A DNA stretch of 64,000 bases from Isurus oxyrinchus. Lineage: Eukaryota. The notes below the pieces were generated by a model, which saw only the letters and a list, made by a program, of their open reading frames with translations, did not search any database and was not told where the DNA came from. Below are positions 4,301-59,995 of this stretch, one piece after another (the stretch's first letter is position 1; the number at the start of each line of letters is the position of its first letter). A program made the translations under genes and the position numbers. Where the stretch lies: positions 62,001-126,000 of the forward strand of contig JANJGN010000385.1 in NCBI GenBank assembly GCA_026770705.1, in the 5' to 3' direction.

Positions 4301-7300
4301 GCTCTTTCCCGTCACTGTGTCTTCAAAGGTTTCCTGAGCAGTCAGTACACTGCGATTTCAACCCTCTCTGATGCTGCGTCTCTGTTGTGGTCTGACCAAA
4401 GCGTCGAGGGTCGTCTCATGTCATGTAGCTCGATCTCAGGCTGTTCACCACGTCATACCTGTACTGAATCTTGCTGCCAGAATGTTTGGCCACCACTGAT
4501 CACCATGTTGTGTTTTTATAATGATATAAAGGCACCAGCCACTGATACGGAATTGGGTAAATACATTGTGGGTTCAGTTATTTAGAACAGGGACATGAGA
4601 ACAGATATACAAGGATAGAAAGCTGGGAGACACCTGCAGCCAAACTGTGTGAGCTGTGTTCTGCTCACAGGCCAAAGAGAAACTTGGACTGGATGGTGTT
4701 ACCATCCCAGCTGATGTTACTACTGGGCAAGTCAGATCCCAGGGTGGAGCTCAGCTTGATAGGTCCTAACTTTTATTTTTTATTTAGGAATGTGGAGTGC
4801 GGCTACTGAACAGAGTCACAGGAGTCATCTGATGAACGTCTAACAAAAGAATAAAACATTTATTAAACTAGGAAAGACAAACTATATGACATTACTCCTT
4901 CACCGAGACCTATACCTTTACAGATACATAAGTAGAACACAAATTACGATAACTATCTTATATTCTCATGTTCACACTAAGTACACAGTCCGTGTAAACC
5001 AATAGACGACCTGTGGTCAGGGACACAACATTCTGAAGCAAGTGGCAGAGCCCACTTGAAACAAATTCTATGTCTCATCTGTCCCCAGACGCTTGTGACA
5101 CTGTGAGCCAACCAGTCTCACTGAAAAGCTTCTTTCATATGAGAGTTTCCAATCTCCACTCTCCAAGAACTCTCTTTGGAATCTCCTCCAACATGACACT
5201 TTCACTCAGACACCTTCCACAAGGGTCCACTTTCACTATTTCAAACTCTCCTTCCCATGTTCCTGTCCCCTGGATCGCCACGTGCATTCAGCCTTCCTTC
5301 CACGCCCTGTCTCTCCAATGCTCAGCCGTGTCAATGGAACACCATGGCTTCACATGGCCGTAGTAATGAGTCACCAACCTGTGGTGTCTCCTAGGATCTT
5401 CTGGCTTCTCACAAGCCTATTTTGCTTTAGGTCTGTGTCCTGCTGCTTCTTCCTTTAAGCTTGAAGCCTTCTTCTGCTCCTCATTCTTAACTTCACTTAA
5501 CAGGGCCTTTTCCAGATTTGACTAGAAGGTTTTCTTGGGCCCTTTCTCCTGTTCCACTCGATGGTTTTGGCTTCTTCTTTACTTTGGGACTGACTATCTG
5601 TCCCAATCCTTTGCTGCTTCTCCTGGCAACTCCTTTCAACAGAACTGAAAGTACTTTTCTGTTTTTCTCTGTCTCTGTGGGTCCTTCCCTCTGGATCACT
5701 GTTGCTAGGCAACAGCACAGTTTCTTACACCTTGTATTTGTTTTGACTTCCCTTCAACAGTCATAAAACCTCAATGAAATGCTGGCTTCTTTGTAACTCA
5801 AGTTCCCCCTTTTCTCAACACCCAAATACAGAAATACAAACTAAACTTGAACTTAAAGATAGACCTTTTGCCTAACACACACAAATACACATAGAACTTA
5901 CTTAAGCGAACACCAGTTCCTAAAAATCACATGACACACTTCCCCTCGAGTGATGTCATGCTGCTGTCCCTGAAAGGCATATTACAAAAGTGTTATCACT
6001 TGGCAGGTGATGTGTGCCAGGCAGACCAAGTCCATGAGAGAAAGGTGGTCACACTATCATAATGATTTTGCAATTTGTATTTATTATGAGATGTGTGCAC
6101 TTAATTCAGAAGCAATAACTCCACCAATACCTTCAGAGATTTAAAACAATAAATTAACATATTTGTCATCAAAATAAAGGATTTCAAGCACATACATAAC
6201 TACAAGACTGCTATCATAACTCCTAAAATTCCTAATTAACCTGACTCCCAGTTACAGTCCCTTTAAGGCAACAGACCAAAAATAGATGTTAGATTTAAAA
6301 CAAAATCAGCAAGTTAACCCAATGCCCCGGACAGTGGAATTCCAAATGCATTGTCCCCAACTTCAGTTCTGTTGGAGAGCAGACTTCTGCACAAACAGGG
6401 TCCTGAGGACCATGAACCAATGTAGAATGAACTTTTCCGCTTTTGTGTCCAGGATTCTCTTCCATCTGGTGTGATACCTTGTGGAGTTCATTGTGTGTCC
6501 TGTAGATGGTCCACACTGCAGCCACTGTGCCCCAGTGATGGAGGGGGTGGATATCGAGTCTAGTGGATCAACAAAACATCCAGAGTTAAATATTGATATT
6601 TCTCTCCCCAGTTGGATTGTCACAAGAGTGGAAAGGTGACACTCCACGAGAGGTGACAGCGCAGGAAGGTTCGTGTGTACAGATTCCATGTCATTACAGT
6701 TATCCATCAGATTTGGTAAAGAAACCACAGGTCGGAATCTGGAAAATGAGAAGATACATACAGAACAAATGGTCTAAATGGTCTATAGCCTTTCACTCCA
6801 AGGGTCACAGTCGCGAGTTATCACAGTTCCACCATCGGACCCGGCTGTCTGGAGACCTGAAAGATGGCGACTGTTCCCTGATTATAAACAACATCAGACG
6901 GGAAGATGCAGGATCTTATTTTTTCACGATAAAATTTGGCAATGGTCCGAGACATAACGTTTCCCCTGAAACCCAGCTTCACGTTTCTGGTAAGTGCTGT
7001 GTTATAATTACTCACCAATTCACATCCAACACTCAATGGGAAATAATAGTGTTTGATTTGCTTGTTTTTTGGCCGTGTTAACCAGCGTCACTATTTTTAA
7101 TGATTTGTCTATTTCTGCTCCCAGATCCATGAGCTTATTGTGTGTGATTGAATCCACATCATAGCTGTAACGTAAACCGAGCTGAGGGGTGATGACACCT
7201 CCCCCCTGAGTGAAGTGTCTCCTCCCCACTACACCTTCCACCCCTCACACTGTCCGTGTAAACCCCCGTCCCATCTCCAGCCTCTCTTTCCCCTCCAAAG

Positions 7301-10300
7301 TCCTTGAACGTGTTTCCATCTCCCGAATCCGGTTCCATCTTTCCCGGAACTCCATGTTTGAATCCCTCCAATCAGGTTCCCACCCCAGCCACTGTGCTGA
7401 AACAGCTCTTATCAAGGTCACAAATGGCATCCTGTGTGACTGTGACAAAGGTCAACTTTCCCTCCTCGTCCTTCTCGATCTGTCTGCAGCCTTTGACACG
7501 CTCGACCACACCATCCTCCTCCAACCCCTCTCCACTGTCGTCCAGCTGGGTGGGACTGCTCTCCCCTGGCTCCATTCTTATCCATCTCATCGTAGCCAGA
7601 GAATCACTTGCAATGGCTTTGCAGCATCATCTGAACAGTATTAGTTTTCACCTGTCCACTGAGGATCCCCAGCTCTACCTCACCACCACCTCTCTTGACT
7701 CCTCCACTGCTGCTAAATTATCAGGCTGCTTATCCGACATCCAGTACTGGATGGGCAGAAATTCCCTCCAATTAAATATTGGAAAGACTGAAGCCATTGT
7801 CTTCATTCCCCGATCCAAACTCTGTTCCCTCGCTACCAACTCCATTCCTCTCCCTGGCAGCTCTCTGAGATTGAAGCCAATCTGTTCACAGCTTTGTTGT
7901 CCCATTTGATCCTGAGATGAGCTTCCGGCCTCATATCTGCGCCCTCACTAACACCGTCTATTTCCACCTCCATAACGTCGTACGACTTCACCCTGTCTCA
8001 GCTCATCTGCTGCTGAAACCCTCATCCACGCCTTCATTACCTCCAGACTCGACTGTTCCAACACATGCTCTACACTCCATAAACTTGAGGCCATCCAAAA
8101 CTGCTGACCACGTCCTTACTCACACCAAGTCCCGTTCCCTTATCACCCGCTCTGCTCGATGACCGAGACTGGCTCCTGGTCAAGCAAAGTCTCAATGTCC
8201 AAATTTTTGAATATTTTTCCTCCCTATTACAGTAATCTCCTCCTTTATCTTCATCCACGGCAACATTCCCTATCGCAGGAGCCTCCTCCAGTCCCTACAA
8301 CCCTCTCTATCTCAGGAGCCTCCTCCAGTCCCTACAACCCTCCCTATCTCAGGAGCCTCCTCCAGTCCCTACAACCCTCCCTATCTCAGGAGACTCCTCC
8401 AGTCTCTACAACCCTCCTATCTCAGTACTCTCTTCCAATCCCGAAAACCATTCCTATCACTGCAAACTCCTCCGGACCCAACACCCCTCCCTATCTCTTT
8501 AACCTCCTCAAGCCCCGATAACCCTCGCGATATTTGTAGCCTCCTCCAGTCCTAACAACCTCCACTATCTCTGCAAACTCCTCCAGACCGAATACCTCTC
8601 CTATCTCTGTAAGCTGGTCCATCTCTTACAACCCTTCATATTTCTGTAACCTCCTCCAGCCCACTACAACCCTCCCTATCTCTGTAACCTCCTCCAGTCC
8701 CTAAGAGTTTCCTTCATCTCTGTAACTCCTCCAGCCATTATAACCCTCCCTATCTCTGTAGCCTCCCTCAGCCCCAGCCACACTCCATATCTATGTAACC
8801 TCGTCCTGCCCCTACAACCCTCCCTATCTCTGTAACCCCATCCTGCCCCAAAAACTCCCCCATCTCTGTAAACTCCTCCAGTCCCTGCAACCTTCCCTAC
8901 CTCTGGAACCTCCACCAGCCTTTCCAACCCTCCCTACCTCTGCAATCCGTCCAGCCCCTACAACTCTTCCTATCCCTGTAAACTCCTCCTGCCCCTAAAA
9001 CCCTCTCTGCCCTTGCAGCCTCCTCCAGTCCCTACACGTTCCCCATCTCCATAAACTCCTCAAATCCCTATAGCCCTCCCTATCTCTGCAACCTCCTCCA
9101 GGTCCTACCACCCTCCCTATCTGCGTAATGTCCTCCAGTATCTACAGCCCTCCCTATCTCTGTTACCTCCTCCAGCCCCCACAAACCTCCCTATCAGTGT
9201 AACCTCCTCCAGCCCCAGATGGAAGGTGGGTCGAGCGGGTCAGTCACTTGCATGTTTATTCTGCAGCTTTAATATTTTAAGAAGGTAAGAATGTAGGAAC
9301 ATAAGAAATAGGGACAGGAGCAGGCCATTCGGCCCCTCGAGCCTGCTCTCACTGATCTGGTTGTGGCCTTAACTCCATTTTCCTGCCTGTCCCCCAAACC
9401 CTTGACTCCCTTGTCGATCAAAAACCTGCCTCACTCAGCCTTGAGTCTATTCAATGGCCCAGACTCCACTGCTCTCTGGGGAAGAGAATTCCACAGGCTA
9501 GCGCCCCTCTGAGAGAGGAAATTCCTCCTCATCTCAGTCTTAGATGGGAGAGCCCTCATTCCGAAACTGTGCTCCCTGGTTCTAGATTCCCCCACGAGGG
9601 GGAAACATCCTCCCAGCATCCACCCTGTCAAGCCCCCTCGGAATCGGATATGTTTCAATAAGGTCACCCCTCATTCTTCTAAACTCCAATGGATACAGGC
9701 CCAACCTGCTCAACATTTCCTCACAGGACAAACCCTTTAATCCCAGGAATCAGCCCAGTGAACCTCCTCTGAACTGCCTCCAATGCAACTCTATCCCTCC
9801 CTAAGTAAGGAGACCAGAACTGTACACACTGCTCCTGATACAATCTCACCAACGCCCTGTGCAGCTGCTGCAAGACTTCCCTCCTTTTATACCCCATCCC
9901 TTTGCAATAAAGGCCAACATTCCACTTGCCTTCCTCATTCCGTGGTGTTCCTGAATGCTGACTTTCTGTGATTCATGTACAAGGACACCCAGATCCCTCT
10001 GTACTGCATTCTGCAGCCTGTCTCCATTTAAATAATATCCTGTTTTTCTATTCTTCCTGCCAAAATAATTTGTTGCCATTCTCCTCAGTATTGACCATCC
10101 CCCCAATTCAGCCTCATCTGTAAATTTTGAGTCTAGTGGATCCACAAACCATCCAGAGTTAAATATTGAGATTTCTCTCCCCAGATAAACCCTCACAAGA
10201 GTGGAAAGGTGACAGTCCACGAGAGGTGACAGCACAGGAAGGTTCGTGTGTACAGATTCCATGTCATTACAGTTATCCATTGTGTCCGGAAAACCAACCG

Positions 10301-13300
10301 CGAGGTGGAGTCTGGTTTAATAATGAGAAACAGATTCCCTGGGCTCCCATTGCCTTTCACTCCAAGGATCACAGTCACGAGTTACCACGGTTCCACCATC
10401 GGACCCGGCTGTCTGGAGACCTGAAAGATGGCGACTGTTCCCTGATTATAAACAACATCAGACGGGAAGATGCAGGAACTTATATTTTCAGAATAGAATT
10501 TGACAATGGTCCGGGCCATAACTATTACCCTGTAACCCAGCTTCACGTTTCTGGTAAGTGCTGTGTTATAATTACTCAACAATTCACATTCAACACTCAA
10601 TGGGAAATAACACAAACTGTGACGTTTACATATTAACACAAAACACAGCTAATTATAACACACTGTCTGATTCTCGATAACCTGGTGATAGCTTCCAGTT
10701 CAGTCCTAAAACAACCTCTAATACTCACTTTAATATCAGTGGTTAAATGTATTGACTGTGTCCATCAATGTTATCAGGTTATCCACTTACATCAATCTCC
10801 CTAATCCTGTTTAAAATTCTTACATATCAACAAAAGAAAGATTTGCATTTCTATAGCGCCTTTCACCACCTTTTGACGTCGCAAATGGATTCACAACCAT
10901 TGAAATAATTCTTGAAATGTAGCCCTTGTTGTAATATAGGAAACACAGCAGCCAATTTGTGCACAGGAAGCTCCCAGAAACAGCAATGTGATCAATAACC
11001 TGATCGTCTGCTTTAAATGCCGGTTCAGTGATTGGTTCAAATGGATTCTCTCCTGCTGGGAACTGGATAGAATTTAAATCTGGCAGATTTCGGAGAAAGT
11101 AACAAGCCAGTGTGTCAGGAACTGTGAGCTGATCCCCCACCCTCACCCGGGATTGTCAATTCAATTGTCTCAAAGTGGAAGTGAATTCATCTGAGTGACT
11201 GAAACTCCACTAAGTCTGAAAATAGGAAAGTCTCTCCTGATCGTTGTAATCTCTCAGTTCTGATATCATCCTTGTAAAAGTGCTTTTTCTTGTGGGACTG
11301 TGATTTCTATTTGAACTGATGCTTCACGTTATATTTCTCTAAAAGGATCCATTCTCTGTCTGTTAGATTTCACAGATAAACCCATGATATTCCCTGCTGA
11401 AATTATTGCAGGGAAGCGTGTGGATGTAAGCTGCACCTTCAACACAACGTGCAATGGAACAGCAGCACCTGTCTTAACCTGGGACACTCCCACTGACGTA
11501 CCTGGATCAGTCTCAAACACTGTAACTCAGCATGGTGTCACTCTGACCTATACTTCTGTTCTGACCCTGATCTCATCACTCAAACACCACGGACACACTC
11601 TAAGCTGCAGAGTGAGATATCCATCTGTTTCATCGGAGCGGACCCTCGTATTAACTGTACAAGGTAAGTACTGAAACCCTTGATTCTATATTAGCTGTAA
11701 TAGGTTACAATGTGCAGAGCAAGATCCCACAAACATCACTGGGTTGAAGACAAAACAGGTCCTTTTTTATTAGTGATATTGACCAGGGAGAGCTCTTCCT
11801 GTATTGAGCCTTGGGATTGTTTATGCCTACCTGATAGGGCAGAGGGGGCCAAGGTTGAACTTAAAAGACAATATAGGATAATATAAATATTGTCTTCATT
11901 GATGTCAAAGATTTTGGGGGTGATGTAGTATAAAAGTTTAATATTAACAATGTAAATAGATAGTATTTATCATCAGTTACTCAAGGTTACATGAGAATAG
12001 AACACGGAGAGAGATAGTTCTATAGATACCTAGGTACATAGAAACTAGGAGCACGATTAGGACATTCAGCCCTTCAAGCCTTCTCCGCCATTCAATATGA
12101 TCAAGGCTGACCCTCTATCTCAAAGCCTTATTCCCGCTTTCTCTCCGTACCCTTTGATGCCCCTAATATCAAAATATTTATCAGTTTCTTTCTTGAATAC
12201 ACTCAGTGACCCGGCCTCCACAGCCTCTGTGATGGAGAATTCCACAGATTGACCACCCTCTGAGTGAAGAAATGTTTCCCTATCTCAGTCCAAAATGGCC
12301 TGCCCTGTATCCTGAGATTGTCGCCCTTGGTTTTAGACTCCCCAACCAGGGGATGCATCCTCCCTCCATCCAGTCTGTCTATCTCTGTTAGAATTTCTTA
12401 CGTTTATTCAGGTCTCCTCTCATTCTTCTAAACTCTAGTGAATACAGACCCAGTCGTAGCAATTCTCCTCATACGACAGTCCTGCCGCCCCTGGTATCAG
12501 CCTAGAGAACCTTCTCTGCACTCTCTCGAAGGCAAGTCTATCCTTTTTTAGGGAGGGAGACCAAAACGGCACGTAGTACCCCATGTGCAGTCTCACCAAG
12601 ACCTTGTATAACTGCAGTGAGACATCCCTACTCCTGAACACAAATCCTCTTGCAATGAAGGCCAACATACCATTTGCCTTCCGAATTACTTGCTGCACCT
12701 GCCTGTTTACTTTCATTGGCTAGTGCACAAGGACACCCAGATCCCTTTATACATCCACATTTCCCATTATATCACCATTTAAATAATACTCTGCCTTTCT
12801 GTTTTTCACACCAAAGCCTACAATGTCACATTCAACCACATCATCTGCCATGTGTTTGCCCACACACACAACTTGTCTAAATCGCCTTGAAGCCTCTTTG
12901 CATCCTCCTCACAGCTCACACCCTTACCCAGCGTTGTGTCATCAGAAAACCTGGAAATATTGCACTTGGCTCCTTCACCCAAGTCATTTAAATATATCGT
13001 GAATAGTTAGGTCCCAAGCACGGATCGCTGTGGTACACCACTAGTCACCGCCTGCCACTCAGATAAAGACTAATTTATTCTGACCCTCTGTTTCCTGTCT
13101 GTCGACCAATTCTCAATCCATGCCAGTAAATAACCCGCAATCCCATGGGCTTTAATGTTGCGCACTAGCCTCATGTAGGACCTTATCAAAAGCCTTCTTG
13201 AAATCTAAAAACACCACATCCACTGGTTATCCCTTATCTATTCCACAAGTTACATCCTCAAAATCTCCAGTAGATTAGTTAAGCATGATTTTCCTTTCAT

Positions 13301-47600: not shown

Positions 47601-49136
47601 GTAATGTGGGCTGGGACATTTTGCAATGTCAGAGGCGCTGTGTAAATGCAAGTTGTGAGTGTTATGTGGAAGGGAGACCCCAGGCGGCAGTCAGTGCCAG
47701 AGACTGGAGTCATTGTGTGCAGACCGTATCTAATCTCTCCGAATGCACAATCGGTTTGACTGTCAGCCAAAGCATTTTTGATATTTGATCCTTCTACCTG
47801 TTTATAACCAGGCCTACATCAAACACCGAGAGGCTGGTTAATCAACAGACACCTTAGAGGATCGAGTGAAAGACAAAGAGGACTTGCATTTCTCTATAAA
47901 AACAAAGAAAACTGCAGATGCTGGAAAGCCAAAACAAAAACAGAATTACCTGAAAAAACTCAGCAGGTCTGGCAGCATCGGCGGAGAAGAAAAGAGTTGA
48001 CGTTTCGAGTCCTCAGAAGGGTCATGAGGACTCGAAACGTCAACTCTTGCATTTCTCTAGCGCCTTCCAACACTTCAGGACGTCCCAAACTGTTTCGCAG
48101 ACAATCAAGTGCTTTTTTTCTTTCATGTGAGGTCACTGATGTACTGTGGGAAAAGAATCAGCCATTGGCGCACAGTAAGATCCCACAGACAGCAGCATGA
48201 TAATGACCAGCGCGCTCCCAGTACTTGCACTGCAAGTGTCAGTTCAGGGTGTCTGCTCGATTCTCTGCAACTCTCAGCTCTGAGTTAAAAGGACCACCAG
48301 GCATAATTGAGAAATTACCGAGCTGTCGGAGGGTCAGTACCAGCGGGGGGGCAGGAGAGTCGGAGGGTCAGTACTGAGGGGGTGCTGCATTGTCAGACAG
48401 TCAGTCTTGGAGTGCTGCATTGTCAGAGGGTCAGTACCGGCGGGGGACTGCACAGTCGGAGGGTCAGTACTGAGGGGTGCTGCATTGTCAGACGGTCAGT
48501 ACTGAGGGAGTGCTGCACAGTCGGAGGGTCAGTACTGAGGGGGTGCTGCACTGTTGAATGCGCTGTCTTTCAGATGAGATGTTAAACTGAGACAACATCT
48601 GCCCTCTCAGATGGATGTAGAGGATTCCATGGCCACAATTTAAATGAAGTGCGTCAGGAGTTGGGGGTATGTGTGGAGGGGGTGGTGGGGGGTGGATGGG
48701 ATGCAGTTATGTCTGCTTTCCTGGGGCAAACATTTATCCCTCAACTGACATTGGTAAAAAACTGAAAATCGGGGCCATTATCACATTTCTGTTTGTGGGA
48801 TCTTGCTGTGCGTGAATTGCCTGCTGCGTTTCCTACATTACAGCGGTGAGCTCACTTCAGAAAAAGTCCTTCCTTCAGCTGTGGAACACTTTGGGCCATC
48901 CTGAGGAGGGGAAAGGCGCTATAGAAATGCGCCATCCTCCTTCCAATGACGCGCCTGATTGAAATGATGCCTTCTTTCTTTCCGGAATGTTCTCACCTAT
49001 TGTCCTCCTGCTTTTCCAGGGCTCCTTGCTGCAGCGCCAGAAGAGAATGGACAGACAGCAGCTCTGCATATTCTGCTGTAGCTGCTGTAATTGGAGAGAA
49101 CCAAATGAGACTTGTGGTCTCTGCTGTAGATATTAG
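44670..49136 (+). CDS. HAMP: Hepcidin-like prepropeptide, 88 aa, exons 44670-44762, 46568-46624, 49020-49136
   Basis: MGSSQMKWRLVLFTLTLLLSLQLSHFFSLSR | VDTALGSSTIEKSVDSPDT | GSLLQRQKR-MDRQQLCIFCCSCCNWREPNETCGLCCRY*. Has a signal peptide, furin site RQKR, the hepcidin 8-Cys pattern C-x2-CC-x-CC-xn-C-x2-CC, and two phase-0 GT-AG introns. AATAAA at 49778-49783. Confidence 0.93.
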
Positions 49137-54691: not shown

Positions 54692-57600
54692 CTAGAGAAC
54701 ACACAGAAAGAAATCATCACTGACTCTCCGCTTTCAATCTCTCACTCTGGCTGAACAATCAAGCTTCATATCACTGCAACATTTGCTGTAATATTGACCC
54801 ATCCACTGGGATTCAATGTGGAATGAATGTTTTCATTGTAAACACTCTAAGAGTGGACAATCGGAACTTTCCCCTTAGCGTGGAACATTGGTGAGAATGG
54901 ATCATTGTGCTGTTGGACTCCCTGTCCAATGTTTCTCTCCATCGCTGTGTACAGGATTGTGCTGTAGAAAATTCTGGAAACGTTTAGTGCAGGGTAGAAA
55001 TCCATCTCGGACGCGTGTGCGAATCGGGCAAGATCGAGATGGACTCCCCCATGGACTTACACCCCCCGCTTAATAAACAGGTCCAATCTTTATCCAGAGA
55101 GAGGGGAGAATGTGGAACTCGCTCCCACAGGGAGTGGTCGAGGTGAACAGTATCGATGTATTTAAGGGGCAGGAGGGTCGGTAACCAGAGGGACACAGAT
55201 TGACGAACCGGAGGGGGAGATGAGGAGAATTTGTTTTGACAGAGTGAGTTGTTGTGATCTGGAAGGTTCTGCCTGAAAGGGCGGTGGAAGCAGATTCAAT
55301 AGGAACTTTCAAAAGGGAAATTGGATAAACACTTGAAGGAGGAAGATGGGGGCAAAGTGGAGTGGTGGTTAGTGGATCTGATGGGATAGAACATTGAAAG
55401 ACCTGGCACAGGCTCAATGGGCTGAATGGCCTCCTCCTGTGCTGTATCATTCTCCGCTTCCATGATCTCTCCCCCAGTCAGTAACCACTCCAGATCCCTC
55501 TTGAAGGTGACAGAGAGACAGCAACCACCACACCCACTGACAGCACATTCCCGAGGATCCCTACTCTCTGGGAAAAGATGAACTCCCCAACATCCAGCCT
55601 ATTCCTGCTTCCCAGAGAGTGTAAACCCTTCAGGGAGGCACTGAGGAAGTTTTCAATAAAATGAATTATCAAATCTATCATTTGAGAAATAATTTAATTC
55701 TGATGAACTCACAGCTTGTGTAGCAAACTGGGAAGTGGAGTTGCTGGGAAAGCTGGGAAACACAAGGATGAAGGGCTACAATGCCACCACTGGTGGGAGG
55801 CTGTAACTACAGCGTGACGTTTACATAGGCAGTCATCATTATAAACAGGGGCATTGCACATAATGGGAATTATGTGCACGGAAATAGTGAGAACATTATG
55901 TAAGCTTTTCACCAGCAGGAATTCTCTTCCTAAACCTCTCCAACTCTCTCTTACTCTCAGATACACAAAGAAAATCACACAGAATCAGATAAGGAAGAAT
56001 TAGGTTGGTGATTCGTCAAAGGGTTAGGTTTCAGGAAGCTTCTTAAAAGGAGAGAGAGAGTTGGAGACGCAGAGAGTATCTGTGAGAGCCTCTATGCATC
56101 TGAGTGTCTGTAATAGTAATTTCCATATTCTTCCATAAATATGAATGGGAACACAAATCCCAGAATTCAGGCCAACTCTCCAGTGCAGTACTGAGGGAGG
56201 TCAGGTAACCCATGAGGGAGTGAGTGTTAGTGTTTGTGTGTGAGTGTGTCTTTGTGTGTGGTCATATATGTGTGTCTGCACGTGTCTATTTAGGTGTGTA
56301 TGTTCGATGGTGTTTGTGTAGTGTTCAAATCTGAGAGAGATGTTGAAGTCTGTGTAACTCACGTTCCACACTGATGGTTATGAACCCATCCACTGCTCCA
56401 TGTTCATTCTCTGCCACACACTGATAGTCTCCAGTGTCCCTGGATGTAACATGAGGAATCACCAACCACAGCTCATTGTTGGAACTTGTTCTGTTCATTT
56501 GGACATTCAGATGTCATGGCAGGAATCAAGAAGCCCGTTCACAGGATTATCAACAGAAAGTGAACAACAATTTATACTTAATGGGAAGAGAGTGCTGATT
56601 GGTTGGCAAGTGGACTCTGATAGGTGGAGGTGTTGCCATGGAGAATGGTGTGTGCGAGATGTAAAGTTTAGACAGCTTGTCTCTTCATTCAGCAATAATC
56701 AAATAAAGATCAATTAAATTCTATCGACTTTGAAGCACTTAGAGAGGCCTTAGAATGTGGACACTGAGAACGGGCTGCACTGTCAGAGGGTCTGCGCTGA
56801 GGGAGTGCTGATGTAGAATGAAAGGTGTATGTAATTACCTTGCACTGTTAGTACGAGGGTCCGCTCCGATGAAACAGATGGATATCTCACTCGGCAGCTG
56901 AGAGTGTGTCCGTGGTGTTTGAGTGATGGGATCAGGGTCAGAACAGAAGTATAGGTCAGAGTGACACCATGCTGAGTTACAGTGTTTGAGACTGATCCAG
57001 GTACGTCAGTGGGAGTGTCCCAGGTTAAGACAGGTGCTGCTGTTCCATTGCACGTTGTGTTGAAGGTGCAGCTTACATCCACACGCTTTCCTGCAATAAT
57101 TTCAGCAGGGAATATCATGGGTTTATCTGTGAAATCTAACAGACAGAGAATGGATCCTTTTAGACAAATATAACGTGAAGCATCAGTTCAAATAGAAATC
57201 ACAGTCCCACAAGAGAAAGCACTTTTACAAGGATGATATCAGAACTGAGAGGTTACAATGATCAGGAAAGATTTTCTTGCTCTTTGGCAGTAGTGTTTCT
57301 GTCTCTCAGCTTAATACACGTTCACTCCGAGACATGTGAATTGAGAATACTGGATGAGAGAAGAGGCTCAGTCCAGAGATTGGAGTTAAAAGCAGAATAC
57401 TGCGGATGCTGGAAATCTGAAACAAAAACAAAAATTGCTGGAAAGACTCAGCAGGTCTGACAGTATCAGTGGAGAGGAAGACAGGGTTAACGTTTCAAGT
57501 CTGTATGACTCTTCATCAGACCAGAGGTTTGAGTTCACTGGCTTCTCATTTCCTCAGTGATCTGGGTGATTTATCACCTTGTGGTTTGTTGGATCTTGCT

Positions 57601-59995
57601 GTGCACAAACTGACTGCTGTGTTTTACATCTGTGACTACAATTCAGGAATAATTTCATTGGCTGTGAAGGGATTTGGATCCTCCTGAGGTGGTAAATTGC
57701 GCTGCAGAAATGCACATCTTTCTTTTATCGATACGTGAGACTTTTAAACAGGACAGGAGAGATTGATGGGAGTGGATAACCTGATAATACAGTTAATGCT
57801 TTTCATCATTGATATTAAAGTGAGTATTAGAGGTTGCTTTAGGACTGAACTGGAAGCTATCACCAGGTTATTGAGAATCAGATAGCAAGTTATAATAAGC
57901 TGTGTTTTGTGTTAATATGTAAACGTCACAGTTTGTGTTATTTCCCATTGAGTGTTGAATGTGAATTGTTGAGTAATTATAACACAGCACTTACCAGAAA
58001 CGTGAAGCTGGGTTACAGGATAGTAGCTTTAACTATTCCTGCTGTCAAATTCTATTCTGAAAAAAATAAGGTCCTGCATCTTTCCGTCTGATGTTGTTTA
58101 TAATCAGGGAACAGTCGCCATTTTTCAGGTCTCCAGACAGCCGGGTACGATGGCGGAATCTTTGATCCCTGTGACTGTGACCCTCGGAGTGAAAGGCTAT
58201 AGACCATTTAGGCTGTAGGGTTCCCATCTATTCCTGTCAACCAGATTCCGACACGTGATCTCCCTACGAAATGTGATGATTAACTGTCATGACATGGAAT
58301 CTGTACACAGGAACCTTCCTGCGCTGCCACCTCTCGTGGAGTGTCGCCTTTCCACTCTTGTGACAGTCCAAGTGGGGAGAGAAATATCAATATTTAACTC
58401 TGGAAGGTTTGTAGATCCACTAGACTCGATATCCACCCCCTCCATCACTGGGGCACAGTGGCTGCAGTGTGGACCATCTACAGGACACACATGGAACTCC
58501 CCAAGGTTTCACAATGGATGGAAGAGAATCCTGGACACAGGAGTGGACAAGTTCATTCTACATTGGCTCATGGTCCTCAGGACCCTGTTTAGTGAAGCCA
58601 GTCTTCCACCCAACACAGTGTCTACAAGATACACAGAGAAACTGTGTAAACATCTCATCTCTCTAAACTGACTGGCTTGGCTTCGGTTTAACTTTCAGTA
58701 TTTTTAAATTTCCATATTGTGGTTGCTATGGTGAAACTGTGCAGGAAGAGTGAGGGCTGGACTCTCTGTCTATTCTCACTGCAGCTGTGATGTGGCCGTG
58801 GTGATTGTCAGTAAAATGAAACCCTCTGATCTCCTCCATCCCCGAGGTTTAGGGAGTGAATTCCAGAGCTCAGGCCCCAGGCAGCTGAAGGCACGGCCGC
58901 CAGTATTGGATTGATGGGAATCGGGGGATGGTCAAGAGGCCGGAATTGCAGTAACACAGAGATCTGGGAAGTTGTTTGGTTGAGTTGCAGGAGGTTTCAG
59001 AGATTAAGAGATAAGAATGATCTTTTACAAAGACTGTTAAACATAATTCTGTCTGAGCTGATGATGATATTACCTTGGGAAAGTGACAAGAGGAAGTAGA
59101 TTTCCCGATCATCGTCCACTCCCAGATATTCCATCCACTTCTCACTCTCAAGCTGTGAAAGAGAAAGGAGTTAATGAGACGTCACCTCTTGTCCGAATGC
59201 TCTCGAGAGATCAGAACTGCTTTTAGACAATGTCTTCACAGACTAATTTGATTCTCTGTGGGATGATAGGTGCTCTGCAGAGAGTTACAAGGCTTTAAGA
59301 AAGAAGAACATTTAAGGATTTGCATTTCTATAGCACCTTTCACCACCTCAAGACGCTCATGTTTTGAGATCTTGGTGAACTGTTAACCGTTTGTGTCCTG
59401 ACCCTGTGGTGATATTTCTGCTCAGAGGTGGACAGTCATTGACCAGGAGTTTCTCCTGTGGGTCAGTGGGTTTCACAGCCAAATTCAGGGGCTCTGAACA
59501 TTGTGGGATTCAAGACCCCATTCAGGGGACGTCTGCCCCACAGAGTAGACTGAAACTCCCCAGTGTCAGTACTGAGCAAGTGCTGCACTGTCGGATGGTC
59601 ATTACTGAGCAAGTGTTGTACTATTGTAAGGTCAGTACTGAGGGGGATCTCCACTGTTGGAGGGTCAGTACTGAGGGAGTGCTGCACTGTCAGAGGGACA
59701 TTTATCAGGGAGTGCTGCACTGTTGGAGGGTCAGTACTGAGGGAGTACTGCACTGTCAGAGGGACATTAATCAGGGAGTGCTGCACTGTTAGAGGATCAG
59801 TACTGAGGGAGTGCCGCACTGTTGAAGGGTCAGTATTAAGGTGCTGATTTAGAAGACAGGACAATGTGTTAGGAGCCCTCAGAACTTCCCCCGTGATTTC
59901 CAATCGATCCGTTACTTACCCAGGACCTGTCTGACTGCTTGCCTGGGGAGGAACTGCCCACACGCTCTGCTTGGGCTGAATGGGCCTCCTCCTGT
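54552..59995 (-). pseudogene. Siglec gene B: inverted paralog, activating type (leader-V-C2-C2-TM with Arg-short tail), disabled
   Basis: 5'UTR exon ~59995-59920; leader 59152-59074 (1 nt short); V 58371-57995 (acceptor AG>AC at 58372, TAA at 58282-58280 and 58031-58029, frameshifts); intact C2 57135-56839; 5'-truncated C2 ~56516-56363; intact TM/tail exon 54691-54552. Confidence 0.88.

Follow-up and report, generated by a model that had tools for sequence, protein, structure and literature searches.

The window analysed here, a stretch of 64,000 nucleotides from contig C385 of the shortfin mako Isurus oxyrinchus, contains an intact three-exon hepcidin gene with GT-AG introns, flanked by exons that match V-set/CD22-like and C2 immunoglobulin profiles (Table 1). 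The gene has the features by which a hepcidin is recognised: three exons, a signal, a prodomain, an R-X-K/R-R site and a mature peptide. Exon 3 scored 30.6 bits against the Pfam Hepcidin profile (PF06446, cut-off 27), and a search of all six frames of the window for C-x-CC-x-CC found the mature peptide alone. Translation of positions 49047-49136 (+) gave a 29-aa peptide with eight cysteines followed by a stop, with the 8-aa spacer NWREPNET between Cys5 and Cys6, in agreement with the initial annotation. The human chain aligned to it with a 4-residue gap at this spacer. The closest named protein comes from the basking shark Cetorhinus maximus, and the start of Cetorhinus protein P0003 is equivalent to the first of the two in-frame ATGs in exon 1 (44670). 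The eight mature-peptide cysteines are invariant columns in an 81-row alignment. Structure prediction from this alignment gave two strands with the loop between them at a mean pLDDT of 63.8; the model had no Foldseek or VIA-align match, an uninformative outcome for 38 residues. A low-confidence helix predicted from a shallow 5-row alignment (pLDDT 55.7) was dismissed as meaningless.

Table 1. Features of the hepcidin gene and its surroundings in the window (window coordinates).
Feature	Position	Strand	Description
Upstream Siglec-like gene	6629..27390	+	Two V-set exons (~6629, ~10202), C2 exons; tyrosine motifs in two cytoplasmic-tail exons
GGCGCC hexamer	44451..44456	+	234 bases 5' of second ATG; in 72/84 expanded copies with exon 1
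TATA-like box	44593..44597	+	In 84/84 copies with exon 1; same place in both C34 copies
Coding exon 1	44670..44762	+	Signal peptide; in-frame ATGs at 44670 and 44685; GT donor
Coding exon 2	46568..46624	+	Prodomain; 57 bases, AG/GT
Coding exon 3	49020..49136	+	Prodomain end, furin-type site, mature peptide, stop
Furin-type cleavage site	49035..49046	+	RQKR
Mature N-terminal arm	49047..49064	+	Replaces the SHLSIC-type motif found in the C34 pair
Hairpin loop, Cys5-Cys6	49089..49112	+	8 residues, between two predicted strands
N-E-T sequon	49104..49112	+	Asn 10 residues from the C-terminus, immediately before Cys6
AATAAA	49778..49783	+	Candidate polyadenylation signal
Broken Siglec-like V and C2 exons	56364..58404	-	Downstream of hepcidin

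The main feature of this gene is an approximately 90-fold amplification, which is beyond the reach of a reading of the window alone. Searching the shark's own genome for exon 3 returned 92 matches from 93 candidates. Of these, 89 had identities of 70-100% and were located on 14 contigs, and two further matches, both on contig C34, had 54% identity; one match on C13 (E 1.89) was dropped from every count because it had no exon structure. The reverse genome search with the C34 peptide revealed no additional canonical copy. The 14 hepcidin contigs total 13.8 Mb, corresponding to one copy per 155 kb, and copies are present in both orientations. Raw DNA reads from another sample with the same species label (X23, 1903.6 million letters) gave a depth of 27.5 over exon 3 and its 3' flank, against a single-copy expectation of 0.38 that takes the genome size as the assembly size, which corresponds to ~72 copies. 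Because of this estimate, and because 85 of the 89 segments around exon 3 are distinct, the amplification is not merely an assembly artefact. Some assembly copies may be haplotype duplicates and the copy number is therefore given as 70-90. A hepcidin exon 1 match at C385:247076 without a nearby exon 3 match indicates that partial copies exist beyond the 89 counted.

All 89 copies were examined with 7 kb of upstream sequence. Three exons, canonical splice ends and eight cysteines were found in 43 copies, which encode 21 different mature peptides. The other 46 are lesioned, with overlapping lesion classes: TT for GT at the first donor (36 of the 84 copies with exon 1), exon 2 missing (10 copies) and exon 1 missing or truncated (5), both as judged within the stretch examined, frameshift (3), altered acceptor (2) and lost cysteines (2). 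The donor change (window 44763) occurs in copies in which exons 1-2 are nearly invariant, and its scatter over the tree points to exchange between copies. The proposal that the TT copies form one dead clade was rejected, since at least eight changes on well-supported branches would be needed to place the label on the tree. Further lesions were not significantly enriched in TT copies (7/36 against 5/48, p 0.35), and up to 29 TT copies had no other lesion. In reporters, TT donors of the G|TTAAG type are described to splice at the normal position, whereas most GT-to-TT changes disrupt splicing (PMC6280755). Some TT copies may thus be partly active via a non-canonical donor, which makes 43 a lower bound on the number of usable copies. 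The cleavage site reads RQKR in 64 copies, RQNR in 19, HQNR in 3 and otherwise in 3. The Asn for Lys at codon 8 of exon 3 (window 49041-49043), present in 22 of the 89 copies, may alter processing.

The two C34 matches are canonical, cationic, sequon-free hepcidins (L010 and L011), situated 31 kb apart at a separate locus. Downstream of them lies a Siglec-like V exon, and upstream a seven-transmembrane gene that we take to be a free-fatty-acid receptor; the neighbourhood would then presumably resemble that of human HAMP-MAG-CD22-FFAR. This receptor gene is not amplified (two genome matches, both on C34). Around the gene, blocks spread across more than 10 kb align the window with C34 at 84-94% identity, and the introns and 3' UTR of the expanded copies are ~8-10% diverged from C34. 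In a tree built from non-coding pieces of the 80 copies with all exons (78 expanded and 2 C34, with 11 expanded copies left out), the 78 expanded copies formed one star-like clade against C34 with support of 100/100. The amplified family is derived from the shark's own canonical C34 locus. Descent from the teleost HAMP2 lineage was rejected in view of non-coding DNA that is ~90% identical to this canonical locus over more than 10 kb. The conserved His-hydrophobic N-terminal arm (SHLS/THFP type), whose role in ferroportin binding agrees with the burial of the termini in the complex (PMC8235187), is present in the C34 pair and absent in 86/86 in-frame copies. Upstream of the gene, the window copy has the block that bears the GGCGCC hexamer (window 44315-44700, compared with C34:15238711-15235713) ~2.6 kb nearer the TATA box than L011 does, and no counterpart of this block was found near L010. 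The hexamer itself we take to be similar to a BMP-response element.

In non-Cys mature codons, the clade majority letter departs from both C34 copies at 22 of the 42 first and second positions, compared with 54 of 780 non-coding positions (p 1e-13), and 17 of the 21 non-Cys mature residues differ from C34. The C34 peptide itself is within two or three residues of those of Cetorhinus and Scyliorhinus; being nearly unchanged among these sharks, it places the change on the branch to the amplified clade. Among the paralogs, variants present in three or more copies, here called common variants, occupy 15/42 of these first and second positions, compared with 48/815 non-coding positions (p 4e-8) and 1/29 third positions (p 0.001), and they are found at 0/135 sites of exons 1-2 and 0/16 Cys positions. 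At 0.066, the nucleotide diversity of non-Cys nonsynonymous sites exceeds that of introns (~0.015) and of exons 1-2 (0.002). The mature N-terminal arm is among the parts that vary most between paralogs. No part of the precursor other than the mature peptide shows rapid amino-acid change. CpG hypermutation was rejected as the source of the variants (CpG transitions 0/16).

Several observations weigh against a selection signal in the mature peptide, among them that copies with lesions show as much diversity in this region as intact copies do. The mature alleles comprise 21 nonsynonymous and 2 synonymous changes, a ratio that is not significant by site counts (p 0.24), and over all mature codons pN equals pS in the comparison with C34 (0.34 each). 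Third positions are also raised relative to C34 (7/29 against 54/780, p 0.004), with four of the seven located in multi-hit codons. A locally high rate, or older divergence shielded from conversion, may contribute. Since gene conversion makes sites and copies non-independent, all these p values overstate certainty.

The doubling of the loop had been taken initially as a novelty of the window gene. This view was not sustained: both C34 copies have an 8-residue loop, as do 7 of 12 named cartilaginous-fish hepcidins in the database, Callorhinchus having 10 residues and four others 4, and an RNA-like contig of a second species carries a loop of the C34 type. By this comparison the long loop is older than the window gene. 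The proposed net charge of zero (3 Arg against 1 Asp and 2 Glu) is correct for the window peptide and is not a trait of the family, as only 4 of 86 in-frame copies have it; the charge is +1 in 6, +2 in 51, +3 in 24 and +4 in 1 copy, so that 76/86 are at least +2. The C34 mature peptide has a net charge of +5. The fall from +5 to mostly +2 or +3, which a sialylated glycan would deepen, speaks against simple membrane lysis. Neutral and anionic hepcidins are on record for fish (PMC12255565, PMC3978493).

The sequon is fixed in the amplified clade. N-E-T is present in 86/86 in-frame paralogs and the same codons occur in the three frameshifted copies, giving 89/89, and a second-species contig of the amplified type shows zero letter differences in the loop with the sequon unchanged; its depth of 605.8 has no single-copy baseline and gives no copy number. 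The expectation that the sequon is conserved thus held within the amplified type and failed across shark orthologs: the C34 pair, Cetorhinus, both Scyliorhinus loops and Mustelus are sequon-free. Among 85 distinct database mature peptides a loop sequon occurs only in two Mobula sequences, and four others have an N-terminal N-x-S only. The seven database 8-residue loops all end in Thr, preceded two residues earlier by K (4), N (2) or Q (1). The K or Q in five of these seven, including two other rays, led us to reject an ancestral elasmobranch sequon, at which Mobula had hinted. From these alignments the loop sequon was probably gained twice, in the amplified shark clade and in Mobula. Relative to C34 the K-to-N change (K-K-T to N-E-T) involves a single third-position base. 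The sequon is therefore a cheap gain and could be a side effect of a loss of positive charge. That Asn and Thr do not vary between the paralogs is not significant by itself, as 9/21 non-Cys residues are invariant (p 0.17).

C-terminal N-x-T sites and sites bracketed by disulfides are described to be glycosylated post-translocationally by STT3B with MagT1, with N-x-T preferred over N-x-S and site use that can be incomplete (PMC3613688, PMC4137057). Glycans are rarer in C-terminal than in internal regions, and efficiency was lower for a site located 14 residues before the end (PMC3613688). The loop Asn lies between cysteines, 10 residues from the C-terminus, and taking position and motif together, we consider it reasonably likely that it carries a glycan.

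The amplified family is spliced and abundant in three RNA-like runs from one sample. Summed contig depth, a rough measure of expression, is ~100-1200 in intron 2 and ~1e5-7e5 from 49020 onwards. In runs X1 and X3 the contig ends left loose at 49019 consist of the 3' end of exon 2 joined to 49020, and thus represent spliced transcripts. Runs were matched at 90% likeness, and the mature region of C34 falls outside this limit. Less than 1% of depth in each RNA-like run carries the Ser codon letter that the window has at 49081, so the window's variant is a minor one there. The Asp-type letter at window 49051 accounts for ~40-48% of contig depth (X1, X3 and X4) against 9/79 assembly copies, a possible case of uneven expression or an artefact of contig depth. 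One contig of run X4, with a depth of 6460, jumps 83 bases within the mature region (49049-49133), with unread letters between.

The Siglec-like cluster in which the copies reside is very large, extending over contigs C52, C71, C121, C150, C189, C323, C385 and others, and tandem V exons are common. A search with one V exon gave 1053 first-look candidates; the best 150 of these 1053 were all at least 91% identical and lay on 12 of the 14 hepcidin contigs and one other. Within 264 kb of C385, 17 Siglec V exons and 2 hepcidin third exons were counted. Of the 17, 12 keep the Arg that we take to be the sialic-acid Arg; some V exons do not have this presumably essential residue, with Thr in the exon at window 6629.

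The interpretation towards which we lean is that the window gene is one of ~70-90 recent copies of a hepcidin offshoot that would make secreted host-defence peptides, probably N-glycosylated, and that would no longer act as a ferroportin hormone. The offshoot arose from the canonical hepcidin locus and spread inside the large Siglec cluster; its copies would have multiplied by unequal exchange that took linked Siglec genes along, and would have undergone gene conversion among themselves. Furin would release a secreted disulfide hairpin of 27-29 aa whose loop Asn would be glycosylated post-translocationally by the STT3B complex. The variable N-terminal arm and first strand may recognise microbes or parasites, the glycan may provide solubility and persistence at high concentration, and iron control would stay with the C34 pair. 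In the ferroportin complex the hepcidin termini are buried and the variable loop is largely extracellular (PMC8235187). For these reasons replaced termini should change the receptor, whereas a long or glycosylated loop need not do so, in keeping with the situation in Mobula, and the altered receptor proposed in the initial annotation would fit the replaced N-terminus. The interpretation given there is partly supported. A comparable division of labour is described in teleosts, where hamp1 lowers iron and the duplicated hamp2 is antimicrobial and leaves iron parameters unchanged (PMC8502971, PMC6240063); the retention of a canonical pair beside the offshoot matches that split.

Alternatively, hepcidin copies may have multiplied only through linkage to selected Siglec genes, in which case one or a few copies would be important and the sequon would be a chance feature preserved from the founder. 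The excess of V exons over hepcidin third exons in C385 (17 to 2), the 1053 candidates for a single V exon (of which the best 150 were scored), the 46/89 lesioned copies with 36 sharing a GT-to-TT donor change, and the p value of 0.17 for Asn/Thr invariance are all in line with this. Copies carried along passively should vary like introns, yet exons 1-2 and the cysteines are without common variants and the non-Cys mature positions have about six times the non-coding variant rate. The spliced, abundant RNA and the possibility that some TT copies are partly active also count against it, and we consider passive multiplication unlikely as the full account. It does explain the mechanism of amplification even if the host-defence explanation holds. 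Another option, which appears distinctly unlikely, is a retuned iron or metal hormone that acts on a ferroportin, for example the second one of cartilaginous fishes, or serves as a decoy of the canonical hormone, with a glycan outside the cavity that prolongs its life. Some cartilaginous fishes are reported to have a second ferroportin without an equivalent of C326, and in the complex the variable loop is mostly extracellular (PMC8235187). The hepcidin-1 of Mobula hypostoma joins a loop sequon to a canonical N-terminus, and the GGCGCC element lies close to the start. This option conflicts with the burial of the termini in the complex (PMC8235187), both of which are changed here, and with the two canonical copies retained, and a single host receptor fails to explain 21 diverging peptides or ~70 copies.

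A role of the peptide as a ligand for the flanking Siglecs, suggested initially for a sialylated form, had only linkage in its support, and the linkage is older than the sequon. As an explanation it would entail a sialylated glycopeptide that binds the co-amplified Siglecs, either as a self signal or as an opsonin bridging microbe and receptor. A sequon fixed in a clade amplified among Siglecs would suit this, as would the presence of the best 150 V matches on 12/14 hepcidin contigs and one other, the Arg kept in 12/17 V exons and the unamplified state of C34's neighbouring receptor gene. The linkage predates the sequon, since the sequon-free C34 pair already has a Siglec-like neighbour, and human HAMP presumably likewise neighbours MAG and CD22. 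Furthermore, a small peptide bearing a single glycan binds only monovalently and weakly, with many other sialoglycoproteins present in plasma, and the diversification lies in the peptide, where it is invisible to a glycan-reading receptor. We regard this role as very unlikely. Equally improbable is a combined form in which dozens of diversifying glycopeptides are co-amplified with their own receptors, the peptide face binding microbes while the sialylated loop glycan engages paired Siglecs; if true, the region would be a ligand-receptor supercluster of innate immunity.

In the literature searched, with most subscription journals outside its scope, no shark hepcidin expansion and no glycosylated hepcidin were described. 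The accessible text of a nurse shark plasma study has one mention of hepcidin, and in that of a white shark transcriptome paper hepcidin appears only in a reference. None of the database proteins returned by the searches was of the amplified type, and annotation may be missing this family. The largest families found in the literature have 6 to ~15 genes and are all from bony fishes. They include the six hepcidin genes of large yellow croaker (PMC6240063), the hamp1 and hamp2 genes of gilthead seabream, the latter numbered to 2.14 (PMC11043163), and a further HAMP2 expansion in sea bass (PMC8502971). Like these teleost HAMP2 expansions, the shark family is multi-copy beside a retained canonical iron-type copy and combines variable N-termini and fixed cysteines with accelerated evolution of the mature peptide and varied charge, which in one seabream peptide is -2 (PMC12255565). 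It differs in its independent origin, its severalfold higher copy number, the dispersal of its copies across a Siglec cluster, and its 8-aa loop and fixed N-x-T sequon. A 2014 review places HAMP2 only in ray-finned fish (PMC3978493). With ~70-90 copies, the shark would have repeated the ray-finned split between hormone and defence peptide independently and on a much larger scale.

Closer to the window gene, the canonical elasmobranch hepcidin-1 proteins (L010 and L011, Cetorhinus P0003, Scyliorhinus P0009) share its exon sizes and an 8-aa loop ending in Thr, and the C34 pair has a signal and prodomain nearly identical to those of the amplified copies and introns that are ~90% identical. In contrast, hepcidin-1 has an SHLS-type N-terminus, a net charge of +5 and K-K-T in the loop, and occurs here in two copies. 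Non-canonical N-termini are also combined with 4-residue loops in hepcidins of Rhincodon (P0016) and Scyliorhinus (P0011), which suggests that there were more offshoots of separate origin. Human hepcidin-25 (PDB 1M4F, 6WBV chain) agrees with the shark peptide in eight-cysteine spacing, furin-type release and the predicted hairpin, and differs in its single gene, 4-residue loop, lack of a sequon and ferroportin-binding N-terminus. Mobula hepcidin-1 (P0004, P0008) has an 8-aa loop with N-x-T at the equal position; its motif is N-R-T, it is cationic, and in M. hypostoma the N-terminus is canonical. Its sequon is probably a separate gain, because two other rays have K-K-T. The Mobula protein with a canonical N-terminus is possibly a naturally glycosylated iron hormone. 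The fixed N-glycan site would make the amplified shark peptides naturally glycosylated hepcidins, with the manta rays as a second case in an apparently canonical hormone, and the canonical hormone beside the shark offshoot provides a built-in control for the residues that separate hormone from defence peptide.
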